Positions 6,308 to 62,806 of a stretch of 64,000 bases of DNA are shown one piece after another. Made by a program: the position numbers and the translations under genes. The stretch comes from Minisyncoccota bacterium (lineage in GTDB: Bacteria; Patescibacteriota; Minisyncoccia; Phycocordibacterales; UBA9973), in NCBI GenBank assembly GCA_041664745.1, contig JBAYKD010000001.1, positions 27,097 to 91,096 on the forward strand, given 5' to 3'. Numbering within the stretch: position 1 is the first letter of the stretch; each line of letters starts with the position of its first letter. The notes below the pieces were generated by a model, which saw only the letters and a list, made by a program, of their open reading frames with translations, was not told the origin of the DNA and did no database searches.

Positions 6308-6691
6308 ATGAGTACAAATATAAAAGCAACAAATATGGAGTTAACTAGTGCTATAACGGATTATGTTAACAAAAAGGTAGAATCGATTAATAAGTTTGTT
6401 TCATCTGGGGAAGAAGTTATTGTTTATGTGGAAGTAGGGAAGACGACGAAACATCATAAACAAGGAGATTATTTTAAAGCTGAATTTGATGTAAATATAA
6501 ATGGAGAAAAGTTTTTTACTGATTCTGAACAAAGTGACTTATATAAAGCAATCGATGATGCGAAAGACGAACTAATAAAAAAAATTAAAAATAGTAAAGA
6601 TAAAAAGAGCACCCTTTTCAAAAGAGGTGCGACTAGTGTAAAGAAAATGATGAAAGGAATTTCTAAAAGAAATCCATTTACTTCCAAATAG
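6308..6691 (+). CDS. hpf: ribosome hibernation promoting factor (HPF/RaiA family)
   Basis: 127 aa. The N-terminus NIKATNMELTSAITDYVNKKV and overall size are typical of HPF/YfiA. Confidence 0.8.
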   Translation: MSTNIKATNMELTSAITDYVNKKVESINKFVSSGEEVIVYVEVGKTTKHHKQGDYFKAEFDVNINGEKFFTDSEQSDLYKAIDDAKDELIKKIKNSKDKKSTLFKRGATSVKKMMKGISKRNPFTSK

Positions 6692-12081: not shown

Positions 12082-12106
12082 CAGAAAGGGCCTAAGGCCC
12101 TTTCTG
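12082..12106. repeat. REP-like hairpin copy 1 (CAGAAAGGGCC TAA GGCCCTTTCTG)
   Basis: Perfect 11-bp stem with a 3-nt loop, 30 nt upstream of the transposase ORF. Confidence 0.9.
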
Positions 12107-12135: not shown

Positions 12136-12810
12136 ATGAGGAAACAACCTATTATTACAGGTGAGAACTATCATATTTATAATCGTGGTGTAGATAAACG
12201 CGATATTTTTGGTGACAAATTTGACCTAAGACGTTTTGTAGAAAGTATAAAAGAATTTAATCAAGTGGATACAATAGGAAGTTTAATTAACTTAAGAAAG
12301 ACTAAAAAGATTCAGAAAGGGCCTAAGGCCCTTTCTGAGGAGTCGCTTGTTTCAATAGTTGTATATTGTTTAAATCCAAATCATTTTCACTTTATTTTGA
12401 AGCAATCTACGGATGGTGGAATAGCTAAGTTTATGCAGAAATTGCAAAGTGGGTATACCTCATATTTTAATATTAAAAACAAACGATCCGGATCATTATT
12501 TCAAGGTACTTTTAAGGCACAGCATATAGGTAGTGAAAATTACTTCAATAAGACTCTTGGATATGTAAACAAAAATTATCAAGTTCATGATATTCCAGAA
12601 GATAAGAAAGAATTAGTATTTGCTAGTGATTATGAATACGAGAATAATAATTTTAAGATTGTTTCAAAAGTAGAAGGGAAAAGAATTTTAGAAATTTTTG
12701 GTGGAGCTGGTAGGTTTAAAAAACATTCAGATGAAATTGTGGAAATTATTAGAAAAGAAAGAGGAAAGACTTTACTTTCGGAAGATGAAAACTTACCAGA
12801 AAGGGCCTAA
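12136..12810 (+). CDS. HUH (Y1) transposase, IS200-like / REP-associated tyrosine transposase (RAYT)-like
   Basis: 224 aa. YHIYNRG start, HUH motif NHFHFIL, SLFQGTFKAQHI and GYVNKNYQVH blocks. The stop codon lies in the loop of hairpin copy 3. Confidence 0.8.
   Translation: MRKQPIITGENYHIYNRGVDKRDIFGDKFDLRRFVESIKEFNQVDTIGSLINLRKTKKIQKGPKALSEESLVSIVVYCLNPNHFHFILKQSTDGGIAKFMQKLQSGYTSYFNIKNKRSGSLFQGTFKAQHIGSENYFNKTLGYVNKNYQVHDIPEDKKELVFASDYEYENNNFKIVSKVEGKRILEIFGGAGRFKKHSDEIVEIIRKERGKTLLSEDENLPERA
12313..12337. repeat. REP-like hairpin copy 2, in frame inside the transposase ORF
   Basis: Identical 25-mer, translated as QKGPKALSE. Confidence 0.9.
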
Positions 12811-12821
12811 GGCCCTTTCTG
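12797..12821. repeat. REP-like hairpin copy 3, supplying the last 4 codons and the stop codon
   Basis: Identical 25-mer, translated in another frame as PERA*. Confidence 0.9.
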
Positions 12822-15764: not shown

Positions 15765-16148
15765 ATGTCTGAATTCAATAGGAAAAATAAATACAATTTT
15801 TGGCACTCACCTTTGATGTTGATACTACTTTTTTGTATTTTAGTTTTATTCATATATAATATTATCGGTTTAATGGAAAAAGAAAGAGAAACAGCAAGGA
15901 AAAAGGATATAATTTTAGCTAATATTGAAACTCTTCGTAATAGGGAAAGCATATTGACTACAGATATAAATAAATTGAAAACTGAAGATGGAATAGAAGA
16001 AACCATCCGAGATAAATATCAAGTAGTAAAAGAAGGGGAGAAAATGGTTACAATTGTTGATGAAGAGAAAAAGGGTAATGTAGAAATAGAGGCACCTGTC
16101 GAGGATTCAAGTTTTTTGGGTTGGATAAAAAGGTTGTTTAAAATTTAA
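15765..16148 (+). CDS. septum formation initiator family protein (FtsB/DivIC-like)
   Basis: Single TM followed by a coiled coil, and IEETIRDKYQVVKEGEKMV. The ATG at 15765 is preferred over the track start at 15729. Confidence 0.7.
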   Translation: MSEFNRKNKYNFWHSPLMLILLFCILVLFIYNIIGLMEKERETARKKDIILANIETLRNRESILTTDINKLKTEDGIEETIRDKYQVVKEGEKMVTIVDEEKKGNVEIEAPVEDSSFLGWIKRLFKI

Positions 16149-16151
16149 AAT

Positions 16152-16222
16152 GCGGGGTTAGTATAATGGTAATATGCGACCTTCCCAAGGTTGAGACACG
16201 AGTCCGATTCTCGTACTCCGCA
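16152..16222 (+). tRNA. tRNA-Gly (anticodon CCC)
   Basis: Hand-folded 71-nt cloverleaf: acceptor GCGGGGT/ACTCCGC, anticodon arm CGACC-TTCCCAA-GGTTG, T arm ACGAG-TCCGATT-CTCGT. No encoded CCA. Confidence 0.88.
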
Positions 16223-16343
16223 CATTGACTTAAAAGTCTTTTTATTGACTTATGTGTATTACGTGTCAATATTGTAAATTTGACGACTATGATATAATAG
16301 AGTGAGGAAAGGAATTATTAATTAATAATAAAGAATTACAATT

Positions 16344-16586
16344 ATGAAAAAAGTTACAATATATAGCACACCAACATGTCACTTCTGTCACATGGCTAAG
16401 GATTACTTTAATGAGAAAGGAGTAGTTTTTGAGGATTTTGATGTGTCAAAAGATTTAGACAAAAGAAAAGAGATGCTTGAGAAAAGTGGTCAGATGGGAG
16501 TACCAGTTATTATCATAGATAATAAAGATATTATTGTTGGTTTCAATAAACCTCAAATAATAGAACTCCTCGGTATTACAGAGTAG
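16344..16586 (+). CDS. glutaredoxin-like protein (NrdH/Grx family)
   Basis: 80 aa. Active site CHFC near the N-terminus; GVPVIIIDNKDIIVGF. Confidence 0.88.
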   Translation: MKKVTIYSTPTCHFCHMAKDYFNEKGVVFEDFDVSKDLDKRKEMLEKSGQMGVPVIIIDNKDIIVGFNKPQIIELLGITE

Positions 16587-16612
16587 TAATTTATATAAGA
16601 ATGTCGTATTAT

Positions 16613-16642
16613 AAAGGCACCAGAAATGGTGTCTTTATTTTT
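16613..16642 (+). terminator. rho-independent terminator
   Basis: 9-bp stem AAAGGCACC/GGTGTCTTT followed by a T run, ending at the tRNA-Arg 5' end. Confidence 0.7.
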
Positions 16643-20602: not shown

Positions 20603-21706
20603 CTACAAAGATAAATTTCCTTGAGCTTTTAGAGATTTTAAATTTTTTACAAACTTTTTGTTTCTGCTTCCGTAGTATCCCACGATTCCTATCATTAGGG
20701 CATTGTCACCCGTAAGACTTTTGATAGGAAAGTGGGTTTTAATATTAAGGAAGTCGGACTTCCTTAGTTTTTTAATTTCATTTTTCATTACTTCTTGCAG
20801 ATAAGTATTTGCTGATACTCCACCTCCTACTATTAGAGTTTTGATTTTGTATTGTTTAATAGCCTTGATTGTTTTATAGACCAAAGTCTCAACAACTGCA
20901 TCCTCGAACTCTTTAGCAATTTTTTGTTTAATGTTTATGTCTTCCAATATATTTGGATTTTTTTCTTTCAAATCACGTATAAGGTAAAGTACTGCAGTTT
21001 TCAATCCAGAAAATGAAAAGTCATAATCTTTAGAATGAATCATAGGGCGGGGGAGAATAATAGCTGGTATTTCGCTCGAAATGTTTGAACGCTCGATGTC
21101 TGCCATCTTTGAAATTTCTGGTCCTCCAGGATAAGGAAGCCCAAGCATACGAGCCACCTTGTCGAAAGCTTCTCCGGCTGCATCATCGCGAGTCTGACCA
21201 ATCTTTTTATATTTGTGCCAATCTTTTACAAGTATAAGTTCTGTGTGCCCACCGGAAACTAATAGTGAGAGCATTGGAAATATTTTTCTATTAGAATTAA
21301 TTGTGAAGGTTTTTCCTTTTTTAGGGAATATAGAGAAAATGTGCCCCTCCATATGGTTCACTTTTATTACTGGAATTTTGTATTTTAGTGATAGTTCTTT
21401 TGCAAAGACGATTCCTGTCCAAAGTGCTGGCTCGAGTCCTGGTCCGTATGTTACGGTGATAACGTCAATTTTTTCCATTTTCATTTTAGCCTGCTTAAGC
21501 GTCTCTTCCAGAACTATTGGTAAATTTTTCTGGTGCTCTCTTTTTGCCATCATAGGGAAAACTCCTCCAAATTCGGCATGGATTTTGATTTGTGAATTAG
21601 TATTGTTGCCTAGAATCTTAAAAGTATCATTTTTACCAGATTTTTTGACTTCCAATATGCTTATTCCTGTATCATCGCATGATGTTTCTATGGCTAAAAC
21701 TTTCAT
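20603..21706 (-). CDS. tsaD: tRNA N6-adenosine threonylcarbamoyltransferase (TsaD/Kae1)
   Basis: 367 aa. LAIETSCDDTG, HMEGH, SGGHTEL, GGVSAN. Confidence 0.93.
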   Translation of the reverse strand: MKVLAIETSCDDTGISILEVKKSGKNDTFKILGNNTNSQIKIHAEFGGVFPMMAKREHQKNLPIVLEETLKQAKMKMEKIDVITVTYGPGLEPALWTGIVFAKELSLKYKIPVIKVNHMEGHIFSIFPKKGKTFTINSNRKIFPMLSLLVSGGHTELILVKDWHKYKKIGQTRDDAAGEAFDKVARMLGLPYPGGPEISKMADIERSNISSEIPAIILPRPMIHSKDYDFSFSGLKTAVLYLIRDLKEKNPNILEDINIKQKIAKEFEDAVVETLVYKTIKAIKQYKIKTLIVGGGVSANTYLQEVMKNEIKKLRKSDFLNIKTHFPIKSLTGDNALMIGIVGYYGSRNKKFVKNLKSLKAQGNLSL

Positions 21707-27785: not shown

Positions 27786-29120
27786 ATGACAGAACTTGAT
27801 TTAAAGACAATTAAAAACGTTCATTTTATAGGAATCGGAGGGATTGGAATCTCGGCGGTGGCTAGGATGATGCTTCATGATGGGAAGAAAGTGAGCGGGC
27901 AGGATATGCAAGGTGGGGAAATAGTAGAGGAACTTATAAAGCTAGGTATAGATATTAAAATAGGTCAGTCTTATGAGAATATACCAGAAGATACTGATTT
28001 GATAGTCTATACTATTGCTATAGATACTTACGATAAAGAACTTGCAGATAAGATAAAAGCTCAAGATATTGTGCCTGTCCGTTCATATCCACAAATGTTG
28101 GATATTATAAGTCGTGATAAATATACGATTGCAGTATCAGGAACTCATGGCAAGACGACAACGACAGCAATGATCGCACAGATATTAGGTGAAGATGGGG
28201 AAGACCCTTCTGTCATAGTTGGAAGTTTAATTAAAAATAAAGATGGCACTCGTTCTAACTTTATATATGGTAAAAGTAAATATCTAGTGGTAGAAGCATG
28301 TGAATACAGAAGATCATTTTTAAATATTAATCCGAAAGTTCTAGTTATTACAAATATAGATGAAGATCATCTTGATTATTACAAAGATATAGAAGATATA
28401 AAAAATGCATTCCATGAGATGGCAATGAAAGTACCTACCGATGGATTTGTTGTTTGTAATCCAAATGATAAAAATATTGCTGATGTAACAAAAGATATAA
28501 AAGCAAAAGTTATAAATTGGGAAGAATTTTATAATAGTGAATTGAAGTTAAAAATTCCAGGAATTCATAATAAGAAGGATGCAGCGGCGGCTATAGCCGC
28601 CGCTGCCACTTTGGAAATTTCCAAAGAAGTAGCAGAGAAATATGTTGTGAATTTCCCAGGTACATGGCGACGATTTGAATTCAAAGGGAAGCTCTCAAAT
28701 GGAGTTTTTATTTACGATGATTACGCTCACCATCCCGTAGAAATTACTTCTACACTCGAAGGCTTTAGAGAATTGTACTCTAAGGCGGACGGATGGAAAT
28801 TAACAATAGTCTTTCAACCTCATTTATTTAGTCGTACAAAATTACTTTTAAACGACTTTGCACAAAGTTTCAAAGATGCAGACAAGGTTTTAATTCTACC
28901 AATTTATTACGCAAGAGAAGTTGATGATGGGACTATTTCCTCAAATGTCTTAATGAGTGAGATAAATAAATACTCGAACAATGGAGAGGCCTTTTCCTCT
29001 TTTGAAGAATTAGAGAAATATCTAGAATTAGGGCTCTCTCATATGGGGGAAAAGGATATAATAGTGACTATGGGCGCTGGGGAAGCCTTTAAGGTTGGGG
29101 ACTTCCTTTTAAAAAATTAA
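27786..29120 (+). CDS. murC: UDP-N-acetylmuramate--L-alanine ligase
   Basis: 444 aa. HFIGIGGIGISAVARMM, SGTHGKTTTTAMIA, DDYAHHP. Confidence 0.94.
   Translation: MTELDLKTIKNVHFIGIGGIGISAVARMMLHDGKKVSGQDMQGGEIVEELIKLGIDIKIGQSYENIPEDTDLIVYTIAIDTYDKELADKIKAQDIVPVRSYPQMLDIISRDKYTIAVSGTHGKTTTTAMIAQILGEDGEDPSVIVGSLIKNKDGTRSNFIYGKSKYLVVEACEYRRSFLNINPKVLVITNIDEDHLDYYKDIEDIKNAFHEMAMKVPTDGFVVCNPNDKNIADVTKDIKAKVINWEEFYNSELKLKIPGIHNKKDAAAAIAAAATLEISKEVAEKYVVNFPGTWRRFEFKGKLSNGVFIYDDYAHHPVEITSTLEGFRELYSKADGWKLTIVFQPHLFSRTKLLLNDFAQSFKDADKVLILPIYYAREVDDGTISSNVLMSEINKYSNNGEAFSSFEELEKYLELGLSHMGEKDIIVTMGAGEAFKVGDFLLKN
28581..28606. repeat. perfect 26-nt GC-rich palindrome inside murC (GCAGCGGCGGCTA TAGCCGCCGCTGC)
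   Basis: Encodes AAAAIAAAA in the HN..A.AA.A region of MurC. Confidence 0.7.
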
Positions 29121-45775: not shown

Positions 45776-46213
45776 ATGAAAATTATTTTAACAACAGATG
45801 TGCCAAAGATGGGTAATAAATATGATGTAAAAGATTTTAAGAATGGATATGCGAACCTTCTCATATCTAAAGGTTTAGCTATCCTTGCGACTCCGGCTGC
45901 ACTTTCTAATTTAGAAAACATGAAAAAGGAAGGAGAGAAAAAGAAAGAGGAAGGAATGAAAGCTTTCGATTCGCTTGTCTCATCTATAAATAACACAAAG
46001 TTGAACATAAAAGTTAAAGCTAATGAGAAGGGTCATTTATTCAAAGCTGTCGGTCCTCGCGATATAGTGGAGGCTGTGAAAAAAGTAACGGGTGTAGACA
46101 TAGATGAAAGATCAATAGTTATGGAACATATAAAAGAAATAGGTACTCATAAAATAGAAATCAAAAAGGGAAGTAAGAAGGGAATATGCGAGGTGATAAT
46201 AGAGAAAGAATAA
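45776..46213 (+). CDS. rplI: 50S ribosomal protein L9
   Basis: 145 aa. MKIILTTDVPKMGNKYDVKDFKNGYANLLISKGLA. Confidence 0.92.
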   Translation: MKIILTTDVPKMGNKYDVKDFKNGYANLLISKGLAILATPAALSNLENMKKEGEKKKEEGMKAFDSLVSSINNTKLNIKVKANEKGHLFKAVGPRDIVEAVKKVTGVDIDERSIVMEHIKEIGTHKIEIKKGSKKGICEVIIEKE

Positions 46214-46255
46214 AAGTAAAAATCTCTGACACATGTGTCAGAGATTTTTACTTTT
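46212..46255. terminator. 44-nt perfect palindrome, bidirectional terminator between rplI and rpmA
   Basis: AAAAGTAAAAATCTCTGACACA|TGTGTCAGAGATTTTTACTTTT. It overlaps both stop codons. Confidence 0.85.
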
Positions 46256-46526
46256 AGATTACGTGAACTATTTTTTTAACGGATGATGTTCGGTTGAAGT
46301 TTACTTTTCTTTTTGTACCGTATTTGATTGTTCCAGGTTTTAAAGCAAATAATGTGTGATCTTTACCTAGTCCAACATTATTACCAGGGAGAATTTTAGT
46401 ACCTCTTTGGCGAATAATGATTGATCCTGCTTTCGCAATTTCACCAGCGTAAAGTTTCGTACCTAAGTACTTTGGATTTGAATCTGTTAAGTTTTTAGCC
46501 GATCCACCGGCTTTTCGATGTGCCAT
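46254..46526 (-). CDS. rpmA: 50S ribosomal protein L27
   Basis: 90 aa. [33 protein letters not shown]. Confidence 0.95.
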
Positions 46527-52906: not shown

Positions 52907-54613
52907 TTATATAAAAAGTTTAGCGAGGCGGATGTCTTCGAAGGAGAGGCTAGAGCCTTCTTTCTCGAGAATTAGTTTGATTGGATTTAATTTTCCTATT
53001 TCCTCCCCTTTCAACTTCTTATTTACTTTTTTTACTAGATCAATATTTTTCTGTGATGGACGGATGTGTGTGATGATCGTCTCTGGATATTCTTTCATTA
53101 TTTGTTCTATGTGGTGAGTGATTGTGCCGATTGTTAAGCTTCTCTCCTTAGCTATTTCTTTAATATTATTTCCCTTGTCTAATAATTCTTTTGTAATTAA
53201 AATAGTTGGGATTTTCGTATCAATGATTCTTCTCTTAAGCAAGGACCGTCCTTGCTTACGTGATTCTTGAGAGTGGTTTATATTTATGGTGCCCCCCATT
53301 CTATTTATGAATTCAACTTCAAGTAATTCTTGCTCGCCATTTTTAAGTTTCTTAAACATTAATTCGTTCTGGAAACTCTCATTTTTTAATTCTTGATCAA
53401 GCTCGAGAATCTTCGGATTTACTAGCAGAGATTCCTTGGTAAAACCTATTAAACATATGCCTGAAAGTGTCCTTACGCGGGAGAGGGCTACGTACCCCAT
53501 TCCGTAGGTAAAAGTGCTTCTAAGGTCAATCAGAGCGTTATCTAGGGACATTCCTTGGCTCTTGTGGATAGTTATAGCCCAAGCTAGCCTTAAGGGGAAT
53601 TGGGTGATGGAAGCCTTTATTCGGCCGTCTTCCTCTATAGCCCAGATTTCAGGTGCTACGACTACACTCGTGCCATTATAAAGTTTTACTATTGGATAAC
53701 CAGACTCAACTTCAAAGCCAGTAATTTTCCCTCGTGATCCATTTACATAACCTTTATCAAAATTATTTTTAATACACATTACCTCAGCGCCAACCTTCAA
53801 TCTTAGTTCTTCGTATGCTAGGCAACTCTTTTTTAAAATATCTACAATTATTTCGTGACCTTTTGAAGTCATATTATAAACTTTTTCTTTTTCATCTATT
53901 TGTGCAAGCTCTTCATAATTCTCTTTATCGACATTTATGTTGTGAGTATAGAGCTTCGTCGCTTTAATTCCCTTGAGTTCCCTATCTATACATTTGTCCA
54001 AGTACTCATAATGCTTTTCTTCCAAAGTATTTGTACGAATATTATTTAATATTTCAGTTAAGGTGTCGTCTTCTTGTCTGTGTTGTTCGGTCAGATAACA
54101 GATAGCAGGATTCAATATTTTCCATGCTTCACTTTCGTAAATCATACTACTCTTTCCATCTTCTTTTTTAGATTTCTCTACAGGTGGGAGTTGAAAGAAG
54201 TCGCCTGAGAGGATTACTTGGAGTCCACCAAATGGCTTGCCATTTCTCTTAAATCTTTTGCAAATTTTATCTACCATGTCCAGCTGGAAGCCGTGAAGCA
54301 TGGAGACTTCATCAATAACGAGGACGCGAGCCTTATCGAATCTTTTCCAAAGATATTTCTTTTCTTCGAGAGCTTCTAATTCGTGCTCTCCCATTACATT
54401 CTTCACCCCTATTCCTGACCAACCGTGAATAGTCATGCCGTTCATATGAGTCGCAGCGATGCCTGTCGAAGCTGTAACGGCGACAGCGATCTCGTGGTCC
54501 TCTAGGTAATCTATATATTTATTCAGAAGATAAGTTTTGCCAGAGCCGGCACTGCCTGTAAGGTAAATATTTACTCCAGTTTTCATTATTTTGAAAGCTT
54601 GCTCTTGGGTCAT
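52907..54613 (-). CDS. PIF1/RecD-like SF1 DNA helicase with a C-terminal helix-turn-helix module
   Basis: 568 aa. LTGSAGSGKTYLL, VLVIDEVSML, TIHKSQG, and the C-terminal ..IKEIAKERSLTIGTITHHIEQ. Confidence 0.88.
   Translation of the reverse strand: MTQEQAFKIMKTGVNIYLTGSAGSGKTYLLNKYIDYLEDHEIAVAVTASTGIAATHMNGMTIHGWSGIGVKNVMGEHELEALEEKKYLWKRFDKARVLVIDEVSMLHGFQLDMVDKICKRFKRNGKPFGGLQVILSGDFFQLPPVEKSKKEDGKSSMIYESEAWKILNPAICYLTEQHRQEDDTLTEILNNIRTNTLEEKHYEYLDKCIDRELKGIKATKLYTHNINVDKENYEELAQIDEKEKVYNMTSKGHEIIVDILKKSCLAYEELRLKVGAEVMCIKNNFDKGYVNGSRGKITGFEVESGYPIVKLYNGTSVVVAPEIWAIEEDGRIKASITQFPLRLAWAITIHKSQGMSLDNALIDLRSTFTYGMGYVALSRVRTLSGICLIGFTKESLLVNPKILELDQELKNESFQNELMFKKLKNGEQELLEVEFINRMGGTININHSQESRKQGRSLLKRRIIDTKIPTILITKELLDKGNNIKEIAKERSLTIGTITHHIEQIMKEYPETIITHIRPSQKNIDLVKKVNKKLKGEEIGKLNPIKLILEKEGSSLSFEDIRLAKLFI
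53236..53258. repeat. perfect 23-nt palindrome TAAGCAAGGAC C GTCCTTGCTTA, in frame inside the helicase gene
   Basis: Translated as RKQGRSLLK in the linker between the helicase core and the HTH module. Shares the AAGGAC-N-GTCCTT core with 61766-61812. Confidence 0.8.
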
Positions 54614-54634: not shown

Positions 54635-54796
54635 ATGGACAAAGACGAAGAAACAATTAAAGAGGTAAAAGAACCTATTTGTCCTCGTTGTGGTCTACGT
54701 TCTTACGATGAGGTTTGCCAGAATTGTGGCACTCCTATTGTGGACAATAAAGACGACGAAGAGGAAGATACAAATTGGCGCGAGAAGTATAGATAA
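54635..54796 (+). CDS. small zinc-ribbon protein with acidic tails
   Basis: 53 aa. CPRCG...CQNCG. The ATG at 54635 is preferred over the track start at 54599. Confidence 0.65.
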   Translation: MDKDEETIKEVKEPICPRCGLRSYDEVCQNCGTPIVDNKDDEEEDTNWREKYR

Positions 54797-54832
54797 TCAA
54801 AAGCACCGCGACGTACGTCGCGGTGCTTTTGA
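54797..54832. terminator. 36-nt perfect GC-rich palindrome, bidirectional terminator
   Basis: TCAAAAGCACCGCGACGT|ACGTCGCGGTGCTTTTGA, immediately after the stop codon. Confidence 0.85.
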
Positions 54833-54838
54833 TTTGAT

Positions 54839-61765: not shown

Positions 61766-61812
61766 TTCCCAAGGACGGTCCTTGGGAAGGCTCTTTTAAG
61801 GACCGTCCTTGG
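61766..61812 (-). terminator. two tandem GC-rich hairpins of the AAGGAC-N-GTCCTT family after the 61817 gene
   Basis: TTCCCAAGGAC G GTCCTTGGGAA (61766-61788) and AAGGAC C GTCCTT (61798-61810). Confidence 0.7.
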
Positions 61813-61816
61813 TGCT

Positions 61817-62806
61817 TTATTGTGGAGTATTTAGATTGGGCAATGTTGCAGTATTTATTGGGGCAGTTGTAGGAGTAATTGGTGCAGGATTTGTATGGGT
61901 TATTGTAGGAGCAGGTGTAGGAGCAGGAGTCTTAACTTCTGGAGTAGCTGGCTTTGCTGGCTGTGATTGTTGTGTTGCTTTTGCTTGTTCTATTTTCTTT
62001 TCTACTGATTTCTCTGCTGGAGTTGCTGTATGTGGGGCAGGCATATTCAAAGGCATAGTAGTGGTAGCTGGCTTCCTTAGGAGACTATAAATTCCATAAC
62101 TTCCACCTAAAAGTATCAATATAATTAACAATATTATCCATATAGACATAGGCCCACTGACGATAGCACCAACTCTTACGGCGCTGGCTGTAAGGCTATC
62201 TTTCAATTTTTCTCTTCCTGAAAGTCCATCATCACTACCATCGCTTGGCAATATTTCCTTTATATTACTGGCTATTGGGCTTATTTCTACAGCCTTACTT
62301 GTTACTGTTGTTTTGGTTGTAGTAATGGGTGGTATGGCTTTGGCGGTTGTGCTTGTTTTTGGAGGAGTGACTAATGTCGTTGTTTTACAACGATTTCCTG
62401 TATTTATATCATATGTATCCCCTGACTTAAGTGCACATCCGAAAAGCATAGGTTTTATATAGCTTGAGCAACGAATACCAGTATTCACATCAAATACATC
62501 TCCTGATCCGGCCTTGCATCCTACAAGCACTGTTTTTACGTTGTTATTACAAGGTCTTCCAGTATTTACGTCATAAAGATCCCCAGATTTTGGTGCACAT
62601 CCGACGAGTACCATTGTAGATACTGATCCATCCTTATTGATATTACTGACTGGGGATGATAATGAATAGGAAACGCCCAAAGATTTGATCGTAGTTGTTG
62701 CGGCCTCCCCTTTTGCTGTGTTTATAAAAAATCCACCGACGAAGAAAAGCATGGTGAATAAAATCGCCCCGATAAATTTGAGATTGGTTCTCATTTGTGT
62801 AAACAT
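61817..62806 (-). CDS. surface protein with a paralogous leader, three Cys-bracketed repeats, a TM segment and a Pro/Thr/Ala-rich tail
   Basis: 329 aa. The N-terminus MFTQMRTNLKFIGAILF.. mirrors the giant protein's N-terminus MFTQMRSHLKFLGTILF.. Confidence 0.8.
   Translation of the reverse strand: MFTQMRTNLKFIGAILFTMLFFVGGFFINTAKGEAATTTIKSLGVSYSLSSPVSNINKDGSVSTMVLVGCAPKSGDLYDVNTGRPCNNNVKTVLVGCKAGSGDVFDVNTGIRCSSYIKPMLFGCALKSGDTYDINTGNRCKTTTLVTPPKTSTTAKAIPPITTTKTTVTSKAVEISPIASNIKEILPSDGSDDGLSGREKLKDSLTASAVRVGAIVSGPMSIWIILLIILILLGGSYGIYSLLRKPATTTMPLNMPAPHTATPAEKSVEKKIEQAKATQQSQPAKPATPEVKTPAPTPAPTITHTNPAPITPTTAPINTATLPNLNTPQ
62387..62599 (-). repeat. three 27-aa-period coding repeats G-C-x(3)-SGD-x-(Y/F)-D-(V/I)-NTG-x-(P/R)-C
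   Basis: Cys pairs at aa 70/86, 97/113 and 124/140. Confidence 0.75.

Follow-up and report, generated by a model that had tools for sequence, protein, structure and literature searches.

The 64,000-nucleotide stretch of a Minisyncoccota genome analyzed here (the window) is part of a 281,295-bp ENA contig and carries, on the minus strand at 52907-54613, the gene for a PIF1-like helicase of 568 amino acids with a C-terminal helix-turn-helix (HTH) domain, HTH_40. The closest helicases are found in metagenome-assembled genomes (MAGs) of Candidatus Nomurabacteria/Paceibacterota, which places the genome in the candidate phyla radiation (CPR), as had been assumed. The gene hosts a perfect palindrome of 23 nt at 53236-53258, TAAGCAAGGAC-C-GTCCTTGCTTA, which is translated in the frame of the helicase as (R)KQGRSLL(K). 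Its sequence in the window is TAAGCAAGGACCGTCCTTGCTTA, in which a single central C separates two arms of 11 nt, each the exact reverse complement of the other. On the coding strand, the codons at the palindrome are CGT AAG CAA GGA CGG TCC TTG CTT AAG, corresponding to R452-K460 (RKQGRSLLK), and the palindrome begins with the last base of the R452 codon and ends with the first base of that for K460; the original prediction had likewise described a perfect palindrome translated as RKQGRSLLK. As single-stranded DNA (ssDNA), it folds into a hairpin (10-bp stem, 3-nt loop) with a free energy of −9.0 to −9.7 kcal/mol and a z score of about −5.5; none of 200 shuffles was as stable.

The palindrome lies, as had been proposed, between the helicase core and the HTH module. 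By Pfam, PIF1 covers residues 10-186, the Pif1 2B domain residues 260-300, and HTH_40 residues 471-564. In an AlphaFold2 model based on an alignment of 70 orthologues (mean predicted local distance difference test [pLDDT] score of 80.8), residues 445-469, encoded at 53207-53281 on the minus strand, are coil without secondary structure and have a pLDDT of <50; the preceding helix ends at residue 438, and the first helix of HTH_40 starts at 470. The structure prediction thus identifies a disordered inter-domain linker, and because the palindrome-encoded residues 452-460 lie inside this disordered stretch, the site is a permissive one. In the same alignment, the segment from FINRMGG to IDTKIPT measures between 6 and about 25 residues and is hypervariable in length and sequence. 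The usual linker is short, lysine-rich, and palindrome-free, as in TIKQIPGKKKKVGKV, and the residues encoded by the palindrome are lineage-specific, as expected from the earlier claim of an insertion. The about 7 to 9 hydrophilic residues contributed by the palindrome probably have no role in the enzyme, and the element is probably neutral for the helicase.

A comparison of the DNA of 21 orthologous helicase loci revealed related helicases with the same, a different, a decayed, or no palindrome in this linker. The helicase of L005 (98% protein identity) has the identical 23-mer, despite substitutions and two indels in the neighboring linker. In L099 (81%), a perfect 19-nt palindrome, CGCAAGGACGGTCCTTGCG, is read in the same frame (SQGRSL), and L098 has the same element with one arm decayed. 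Only these three orthologues share QGRSL, and all of them encode it by palindromic codons, perfect or decaying; the same residues written in non-palindromic codons were not encountered. The helicases of L001, L002/L003, and L100 contain a different palindrome, referred to as family C, with the inferred ancestor CCGCGAGGA-AAG-TCCTCGCGG, from which each helicase copy is one mismatch off; the copy of L100 has a compensated inner pair (GGC/GCC versus GGA/TCC). L006 has a decayed family-C copy, L009 and L101 have hairpins of the GTCGCC...GGCGAC type, and in L004 (91% identical) the linker is almost absent and the palindrome is absent. All more distant orthologues are palindrome-free. In a neighbor-joining tree calculated with the linker excluded, families B (the family of the window palindrome) and C are intermixed in two clades nested among palindrome-free sequences, as judged from tree topology and identity ranks only. 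Since the palindrome is absent in most orthologues and B and C are intermixed among palindrome-free sequences, the residues are regarded as specific to the lineage. Across related lineages the linker has hosted at least three palindrome types. The proposal that a hairpin element had landed in a permissive inter-domain linker is supported, with the refinement that the linker is most likely a recurrent landing or replacement site and not the scene of a single insertion.

The same pattern is seen in a second gene. About 5 kb from its helicase gene, L002 has a perfect family-C 27-mer in the reading frame of a DNA-alkylation-repair gene; at 6365-6430 of this locus, the perfect copy is followed by an apparently older, degenerate second copy. 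The orthologous gene of L009 has, at exactly the same codon position (565-589), a different 25-nt palindrome, TTCCCCTAGGTC-A-GACCTAGGGGAA. Within a genome, similar palindromes are found at different sites, and between genomes, one site holds different palindromes, as would be expected of a repeat population that evolves and has preferred landing sites.

A hairpin at a fixed place in a gene could also be a selected cis-element of the helicase gene, an RNA or DNA structure maintained at the domain boundary as, for example, a pause site for the ribosome or the polymerase, an mRNA processing mark, or an internal attenuator, with the peptide as a by-product. Apart from the unchanged 23-mer of L005 and the compensated pair of L100, it speaks for this possibility that some hairpin is present at the same place in several lineages and that 4 of the 10 stem pairs are changed on both sides, with 82.5% of cells paired and much lower values in slid controls. 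However, most orthologues, among them all basal ones, lack the hairpin, it is decaying in L006 and L098, and L004 lost it or never had a copy; the same sequence family is present at unrelated intergenic and genic places, and replacement by pre-formed palindromes yields the same covariation signal. Furthermore, unlike an intrinsic (Rho-independent) terminator, the helicase copy is not followed by a T-run on the sense strand, which continues AGAGAAGAATC, and it is located inside an intact open reading frame (ORF), 330 nt before the stop codon and with the conserved HTH_40 domain downstream. The match to a terminator in antisense is only borderline, and an Rfam E-value scan of 50-64 kb of the window revealed no RNA family at the palindrome. 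An internal terminator or promoter was therefore rejected, and we consider a selected cis-element unlikely.

Just upstream of the helicase gene, at 54795-54834, lies a 40-nt perfect palindrome, AATCAAAAGCACCGCGACGTACGTCGCGGTGCTTTTGATT, that has the look of a bidirectional terminator. It is kept in relatives with other central bases (L005, 8620-8662; L006, 9730-9763; L004, 1-20). In relatives, the gene directly upstream of the helicase encodes a Peptidase_S24 (LexA-like) protein and is preceded by TGTGAACGNNCGTTCACA (GAAC-N4-GTTC, LexA/Cheo-box-like), found at L002 9130-9147, L007 8-25, L008 9125-9142, L009 9113-9130, and L010 187-204. The LexA-like neighbor and the GAAC-N4-GTTC site hint at an SOS-linked helicase. 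In the window, no ORF of the size of Peptidase_S24 (LexA-like) is present between the helicase and the next gene.

The helicase palindrome is a member of family B, a low-copy family of short perfect hairpin repeats with the core GCAAGGAC-S-GTCCTTGC, copies of which are scattered, between as well as within genes, over this Nomurabacteria genome and those of relatives. The core AAGGACNGTCCTT is present three times in the window, at 53241, 61771, and 61798, versus 0.16 expected (≤1 mismatch allowed), and GGACNGTCC is also found three times, versus 0.20 expected, a number that no shuffle attained. The two latter sites bear out the notion that the helicase palindrome shares its core with the hairpins at 61766-61812. 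A fourth, intergenic copy of the core, AGCAAGGACCGTCCTTGCT, precedes the window by about 10 kb on the 281-kb source contig, giving 4 copies in the about 84 kb of source sequence scanned (the window with extensions of ±10 kb), versus about 0.2 expected per 64 kb. Outside the source genome, TAGCAAGGACGGTCCTTGCTA is located between genes on an unrelated Paceibacteria contig (L035), and in L008 the gene for a zinc-finger protein contains TACATAGGACCGTCCTATGTA in frame, coding for YIGRSYV. The outer arms of the copies vary (TAAGC..., TTCCC..., TACAT...), and CGTC/GACG is found only at the center (GGACCGTCC).

These numbers bear on the most trivial explanations, a chance palindrome from codon choice in a low-complexity linker or an assembly artifact. 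It is true that the linker is free to evolve and that any sequence is possible in it, but a core expected about 0.2 times was observed three times, the z score of the hairpin is far from that of shuffled sequence, and the same 23-mer is present in an independent MAG of another study and a 19-mer in a third assembly. With the core counts and the recurrence in L005 and L099, chance and artifact are effectively refuted, and their probability is negligible. A viral origin was dropped as well: GCAAGGACNGTCCTTGC gave two IMG/VR matches, which have A/T centers and unrelated contexts and look like chance.

In the source genome, one family-B copy is intragenic and three lie between genes, two of these immediately behind a stop codon (a sample of four). 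The copy at 61766-61788, TTCCCAAGGAC-G-GTCCTTGGGAA, follows the stop codon of ORF 61817..62806(-) and is terminator-like on the minus strand; its neighbor at 61797-61812, TAAGGAC-C-GTCCTTGG, has the opposite central base. Separated by a 9-nt spacer, the two can form a joint long hairpin of −17.9 kcal/mol, reminiscent of a doublet of repetitive extragenic palindromes (REPs). The GC-richer stem-loop and the position of intergenic copies right after stop codons, where they were flagged as terminator-like, are shared with intrinsic terminators. Alternatively, AAGGACNGTCCTT might be the operator of a dimeric DNA-binding regulator, and the helicase copy an intragenic binding site or an accident. The core is indeed two-fold symmetric, and three of the four copies of the source genome lie upstream of promoters, 30 to 75 nt upstream of the conserved TTGACA promoter of a gene for 1841 amino acids and about 60 nt upstream of a small gene. 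Yet the perfect symmetry reaches into the copy-specific arms, which is accounted for by hairpin formation but not by protein contacts. The relative L005, 90% identical, has hairpins unrelated to family B at the site after ORF 61817..62806(-), different palindrome families are found in the same helicase linker, and the half-site AAGGAC is not over-represented (29 versus 26.5 expected), only the palindromic form being special. An operator is therefore very improbable in our view. The half-site count also led us to drop a DNA-uptake sequence or a restriction site as explanations.

Intergenic family-B copies adjoin tandem duplications of one arm and its flank, namely GTCCTTGCTATCTT (twice, L104 1-40) and GTATAGCAA(A) (three times, L035 3195-3345). 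L104 1-40 is part of the source contig, some 10 kb before the start of the window, and there it is the right arm that is duplicated. The duplications may be a footprint of how the element is made or processed. They are also what one might cite for palindromes that were not imported but made locally, through template switching (quasi-palindrome correction or fold-back synthesis) as the slippery, A-rich linker was replicated, as is the finding that arms are perfectly symmetric beyond the core and still copy-specific. A further argument comes from the SQGMSLD motif (HKSQGMSLD) of the helicase, which in L004 (1278-1294) and L006 (11056-11072) is encoded by CCAAGGAATGTCCTTGG, a palindrome (CCAAGGA-ATG-TCCTTGG) that shares the CAAGGA/TCCTTG arms with family B; this likeness is probably a coincidence. 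In the window, the SQGMSLD codons at 53540-53563 are not palindromic (AGC CAA GGA ATG TCC CTA), and since family B is also present at unrelated loci, its derivation from an SQGMSLD quasi-palindrome was dropped. Against template switching in general, independent origins cannot account for an identical core of 13 to 17 nt in copies from different genes, intergenic regions, and genomes, and family C in the helicase of L002 matches the perfect copy 5 kb away in another gene. We regard local synthesis as improbable, more so than a selected cis-element and less so than an operator.

Translated palindromes are by no means restricted to the helicase. The window contains 10 perfect GC-containing palindromes (stem of ≥9, loop of ≤5), and in the lineage 272 were counted in 977 kb versus 6.8 in shuffles, 84% of them with an odd-length center, in a census biased by the choice of 80 loci for containing a REP-associated tyrosine transposase (RAYT). 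In-frame palindromes are common in housekeeping genes of the lineage. In the window, TsaD (ORF 20603..21706, minus strand) has one at 20746-20766, TAAGGAAGTC-G-GACTTCCTTA, which codes for LRKSDFL and is present in many orthologues, others being 4 to 5 residues shorter (IKENK-LKTK). Its core, GAAGTCSGACTTC, recurs in a 44-nt in-frame doublet in PriA (L090, 9534-9577). At L071 (17540-17620), the palindrome of the RAYT of the same locus is inserted in tandem and in frame near the C terminus of PurH; AlaRS of L056 (126-166) also has an in-frame palindrome, and at L084 (13858-13880) an in-frame palindrome matches the RAYT palindrome of the same locus. The in-frame palindromes of L071, L056, and L084 sit in housekeeping or membrane proteins.

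Several observations in this context concern other repeats. TsaD orthologues P0244-P0348 have hypervariable insertions of up to about 70 residues at window residues about 209-214, with the recurring peptides PLPLTKGEAGRGF, LPLSRGR, and VPGSLAQADGPSTSK; TsaD of the window is a short form. Similar peptides of the PSPL..GEG type are derived from CCCCTC...GAGGGG palindromes in L024, L033, and L035. The TsaD insertions suggest further translated repeat families. A 46-nt perfect palindrome with 23-nt AT-rich arms at 46211-46256 lies exactly at a synteny break, where L008 has an extra gene for a zinc-finger protein of 574 amino acids and a CAGATAG-type palindrome (L008, 21449-21471). Finally, a GC-rich perfect palindrome of 26 nt, GCAGCGGCGGCTATAGCCGCCGCTGC, at 28581-28606 lies in frame in an ORF of 446 amino acids and codes for AAAAIAAAA.

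The window also encodes a candidate for an enzyme that handles such hairpins. The gene at 12136-12810 (plus strand) codes for a RAYT-type Y1 (HUH) transposase of 224 amino acids, assigned by Pfam Y1_Tnp (32.6 bits, cut-off of 23), in which the HUH motif (HFH; H83/H85) and Y143 are conserved. With NCBIfam REP_Tyr_transpos it scored 28 bits, below the curated cut-off of 80, and a PDB profile search with the RAYT alignment gave no sequence match. The predicted fold, however, best matched the Escherichia coli RAYT-REP complex 4ER8 (template modeling score of 0.66 on the target), followed by TnpA of IS608 and ISDra2. Three palindromes of a different family, family A, accompany the gene. One, CAGAAAGGGCCT-A-AGGCCCTTTCTG, lies at 12082-12106, 30 nt upstream of the start codon; the second, at 12312-12338, is in frame inside the gene and codes for IQKGPKALSE in a low-confidence loop; and the third, at 12797-12821, has a central TAA that is the stop codon of the RAYT. 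Both palindrome-encoded segments of the protein are of low confidence in the predicted model.

This arrangement is widespread. Of 80 homologous RAYT loci fetched (L018-L097), 56 were examined, and most of these have a palindrome about 40 to 60 nt upstream of the start codon, one in frame at about +170 to 180 nt (xxPKALSx), and one at or just after the stop codon. The three palindromes are uniform within a locus and different between loci, and the upstream copy often has the central base or bases inverted. The RAYT family (about 220 amino acids, Paceibacteria) is vertically conserved, with 70 to 88% identity across many MAGs, and at least one genome names two paralogues. For the RAYT2 protein, no viral relatives were found. 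As far as can be told from the sequence, the internal palindrome of the RAYT is a direct precedent, in the same genome, for a translated palindrome, and the predicted RAYT of the window indicates that hairpin-specific transposase machinery exists in this genome. L045 contains a second, classical RAYT (15906-16642; MPNHFHILL, YSYIHLNPVK) that has no internal palindrome and lies 6 kb from a PKALS-type RAYT, which indicates that at least two classes of RAYT coexist in some Paceibacteria genomes. The palindromes on either side of the classical RAYT, TGCGCAAGGTT-T-AACCTTGCGCA, have CGCAAGG arms that match family B as in L099, and this RAYT with its CGCAAGGTT-arm palindromes is the sole lead to a cognate enzyme of family B.

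How do these elements relate to known ones? Short hairpin repeats that are translated within genes have precedents in bacteria. REPs tagged with GTAG or CGTC have a length of 20 to 40 nt, are mostly intergenic and near the 3′ ends of ORFs, and in a minority of cases are translated (Di Nocera, De Gregorio and Rocco 2013, PMC3733652). REPs inside genes are, in many cases, found in replication and repair genes, including UvrD/Rep helicases and RecBCD; in two Xanthomonas species, recB has different REPs at one and the same site, stop codons can be supplied by REP ends, and RPE-4 and RPE-6 of Rickettsia count as such intragenic elements (PMC3733652). The palindromes described here share many of these traits: they are short palindromic repeats that are in part translated, reside in replication and repair genes, differ at one and the same site, and provide stop codons. 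With 23 nt and a stem-loop, the helicase element has the size and shape of a REP, and family B is dispersed, at a low copy number; classical REPs have a higher copy number than the 4 copies in about 84 kb seen here. Further differences from tagged REPs are the lack of a GTAG/CGTC end, the perfect arms with an odd center of 1, 3, or 5 nt, the CPR/Patescibacteria host, and a cognate transposase, which was not identified for family B.

The biology of RAYTs and of REP doublets forming hairpins (REPINs) has been described before (Bertels and Rainey 2011, PMC3116915; Bertels et al. 2017, PMC5581495). Resemblance to this system is given by the Y1 HUH transposase flanked by an inverted, genome-specific palindrome, by the doublet at 61766-61812, which fits a REPIN, and by a fold closest to E. 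coli TnpA-REP (4ER8). In contrast, the helicase copy is a singlet, the RAYT-type transposase present in the genome is flanked by family A and not by family B and stays below the curated RAYT cut-off of NCBI (28 versus 80 bits), a third palindrome lies in frame inside the RAYT gene, and the palindromes are mostly undispersed. A full-text literature search revealed no report of REP- or RAYT-type elements in CPR or of a palindrome inside a RAYT gene. Given that REP-like behavior is known and that nothing was found for CPR, we class the element as a CPR variant of a known element type. Intragenic REPs have already been published; what is new is therefore the CPR variant represented by the palindrome of the helicase linker.

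The original prediction had compared the element with the Rickettsia palindromic elements (RPEs), which Ogata et al. in 2000 reportedly described as selfish palindromic DNA that is inserted in frame in protein genes of a reduced genome and leaves the fold undisturbed. The comparison holds in part: the helicase palindrome is in frame in a protein gene whose reading frame stays open, it is tolerated in a disordered linker, and the flanking domains are intact. Classical RPE-1, however, is about 100 to 150 bp long and adds 30 to 50 residues, whereas the element described here has 23 nt, adds about 7 to 9 residues, and is found in a free-living or episymbiotic CPR bacterium, not in an alphaproteobacterium; by its length it is set apart from RPEs and is nearer to REPs, and a relationship in sequence to RPEs is not expected. 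RPE work is cited in PMC1779305 and PMC3733652. In a wider sense, the palindrome resembles a class of elements from organelles. The mobile GC clusters of yeast and fungal mitochondria are GC-richer palindromes that spread in an AT-rich genome, occasionally in frame in a protein gene; with their organelle context and other sequences and mechanism, they are an analogy only.

Taken together, our data point toward a REP-like palindromic element in a permissive helicase linker, an intragenic copy of the dispersed family B that is probably handled by a hairpin-specific Y1 transposase; we consider this the probable explanation. In our model, family-B elements would arrive and be renewed as ssDNA hairpins by a Y1 HUH transposase of the RAYT class, and sites that hold a palindrome would be preferred for landing or replacement. 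In the helicase gene, only events that keep the frame would survive. The linker, which is disordered, basic, and length-variable and located between the motor core and HTH_40, is the one part of the helicase that tolerates nearly any sequence, and the palindrome is read through in an open frame. The transposase step is an inference because no transposase flanked by family-B palindromes was found, the RAYT of the window having family A, and this is one of several points that weigh against the model. A cognate RAYT of family B was found by none of three routes, i.e., among the flanking palindromes of the 56 loci, among the peptides and motifs of homologues, and in the ±10-kb extensions of the source contig: in 120 close homologues of the RAYT, every internal peptide belongs to the PKALS type and none to the B type, and motifs of B-, C-, or D-type peptides were found in none of 149 cluster representatives. 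Most RAYT loci have their cognate palindrome only at the gene, with no dispersed copies in the surrounding ±10 kb, which makes this RAYT family a weak disperser. The missing terminal GTAG or CGTC tag of classical REPs and the biased choice of loci for the palindrome census also count on this side, and selection on the hairpin itself would likewise account for the compensated changes in the arms of orthologous copies. Furthermore, a clean empty site with identical flanks was not seen among the orthologous loci, and the linker of L099 is no longer than palindrome-free linkers; insertion is therefore indistinguishable from replacement with indels, and that the helicase palindrome was inserted at all is deduced from its phylogenetic distribution.

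A more far-reaching possibility, which we put forward only tentatively, is a CPR form of the REP-RAYT system, in which a RAYT gene with three concertedly evolving palindromes is accompanied by related palindromes that replace each other at "landing pads" in housekeeping genes. Such landing pads may be the helicase linker, the DNA-alkylation repair protein, PurH, PriA, AlaRS, and TsaD. If this is true, hairpin transposition would continually supply variation to the loops and linkers of proteins in these minimal genomes, and the helicase palindrome would be a snapshot of one such pad.

The genomes of CPR/Patescibacteria are small, gene-dense, and usually thought to be repeat-poor. In the sampled, RAYT-enriched sequence, short hairpin repeats nevertheless showed an about 40-fold enrichment; essential genes contain translated copies, and copies at a given codon position have turned over among close relatives. 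More interesting than the helicase element itself are the RAYT genes with three palindromes and the frequency of in-frame palindromes in CPR housekeeping genes. The link between palindromes and the Y1 transposase is testable, and the layout of the RAYT gene with its three palindromes provides a defined set of substrates. For annotation, it follows that "hypervariable loops" of CPR proteins may be repeat DNA rather than adaptation, and for evolution, these elements offer a tractable case of selfish or domesticated DNA that shapes protein linkers.

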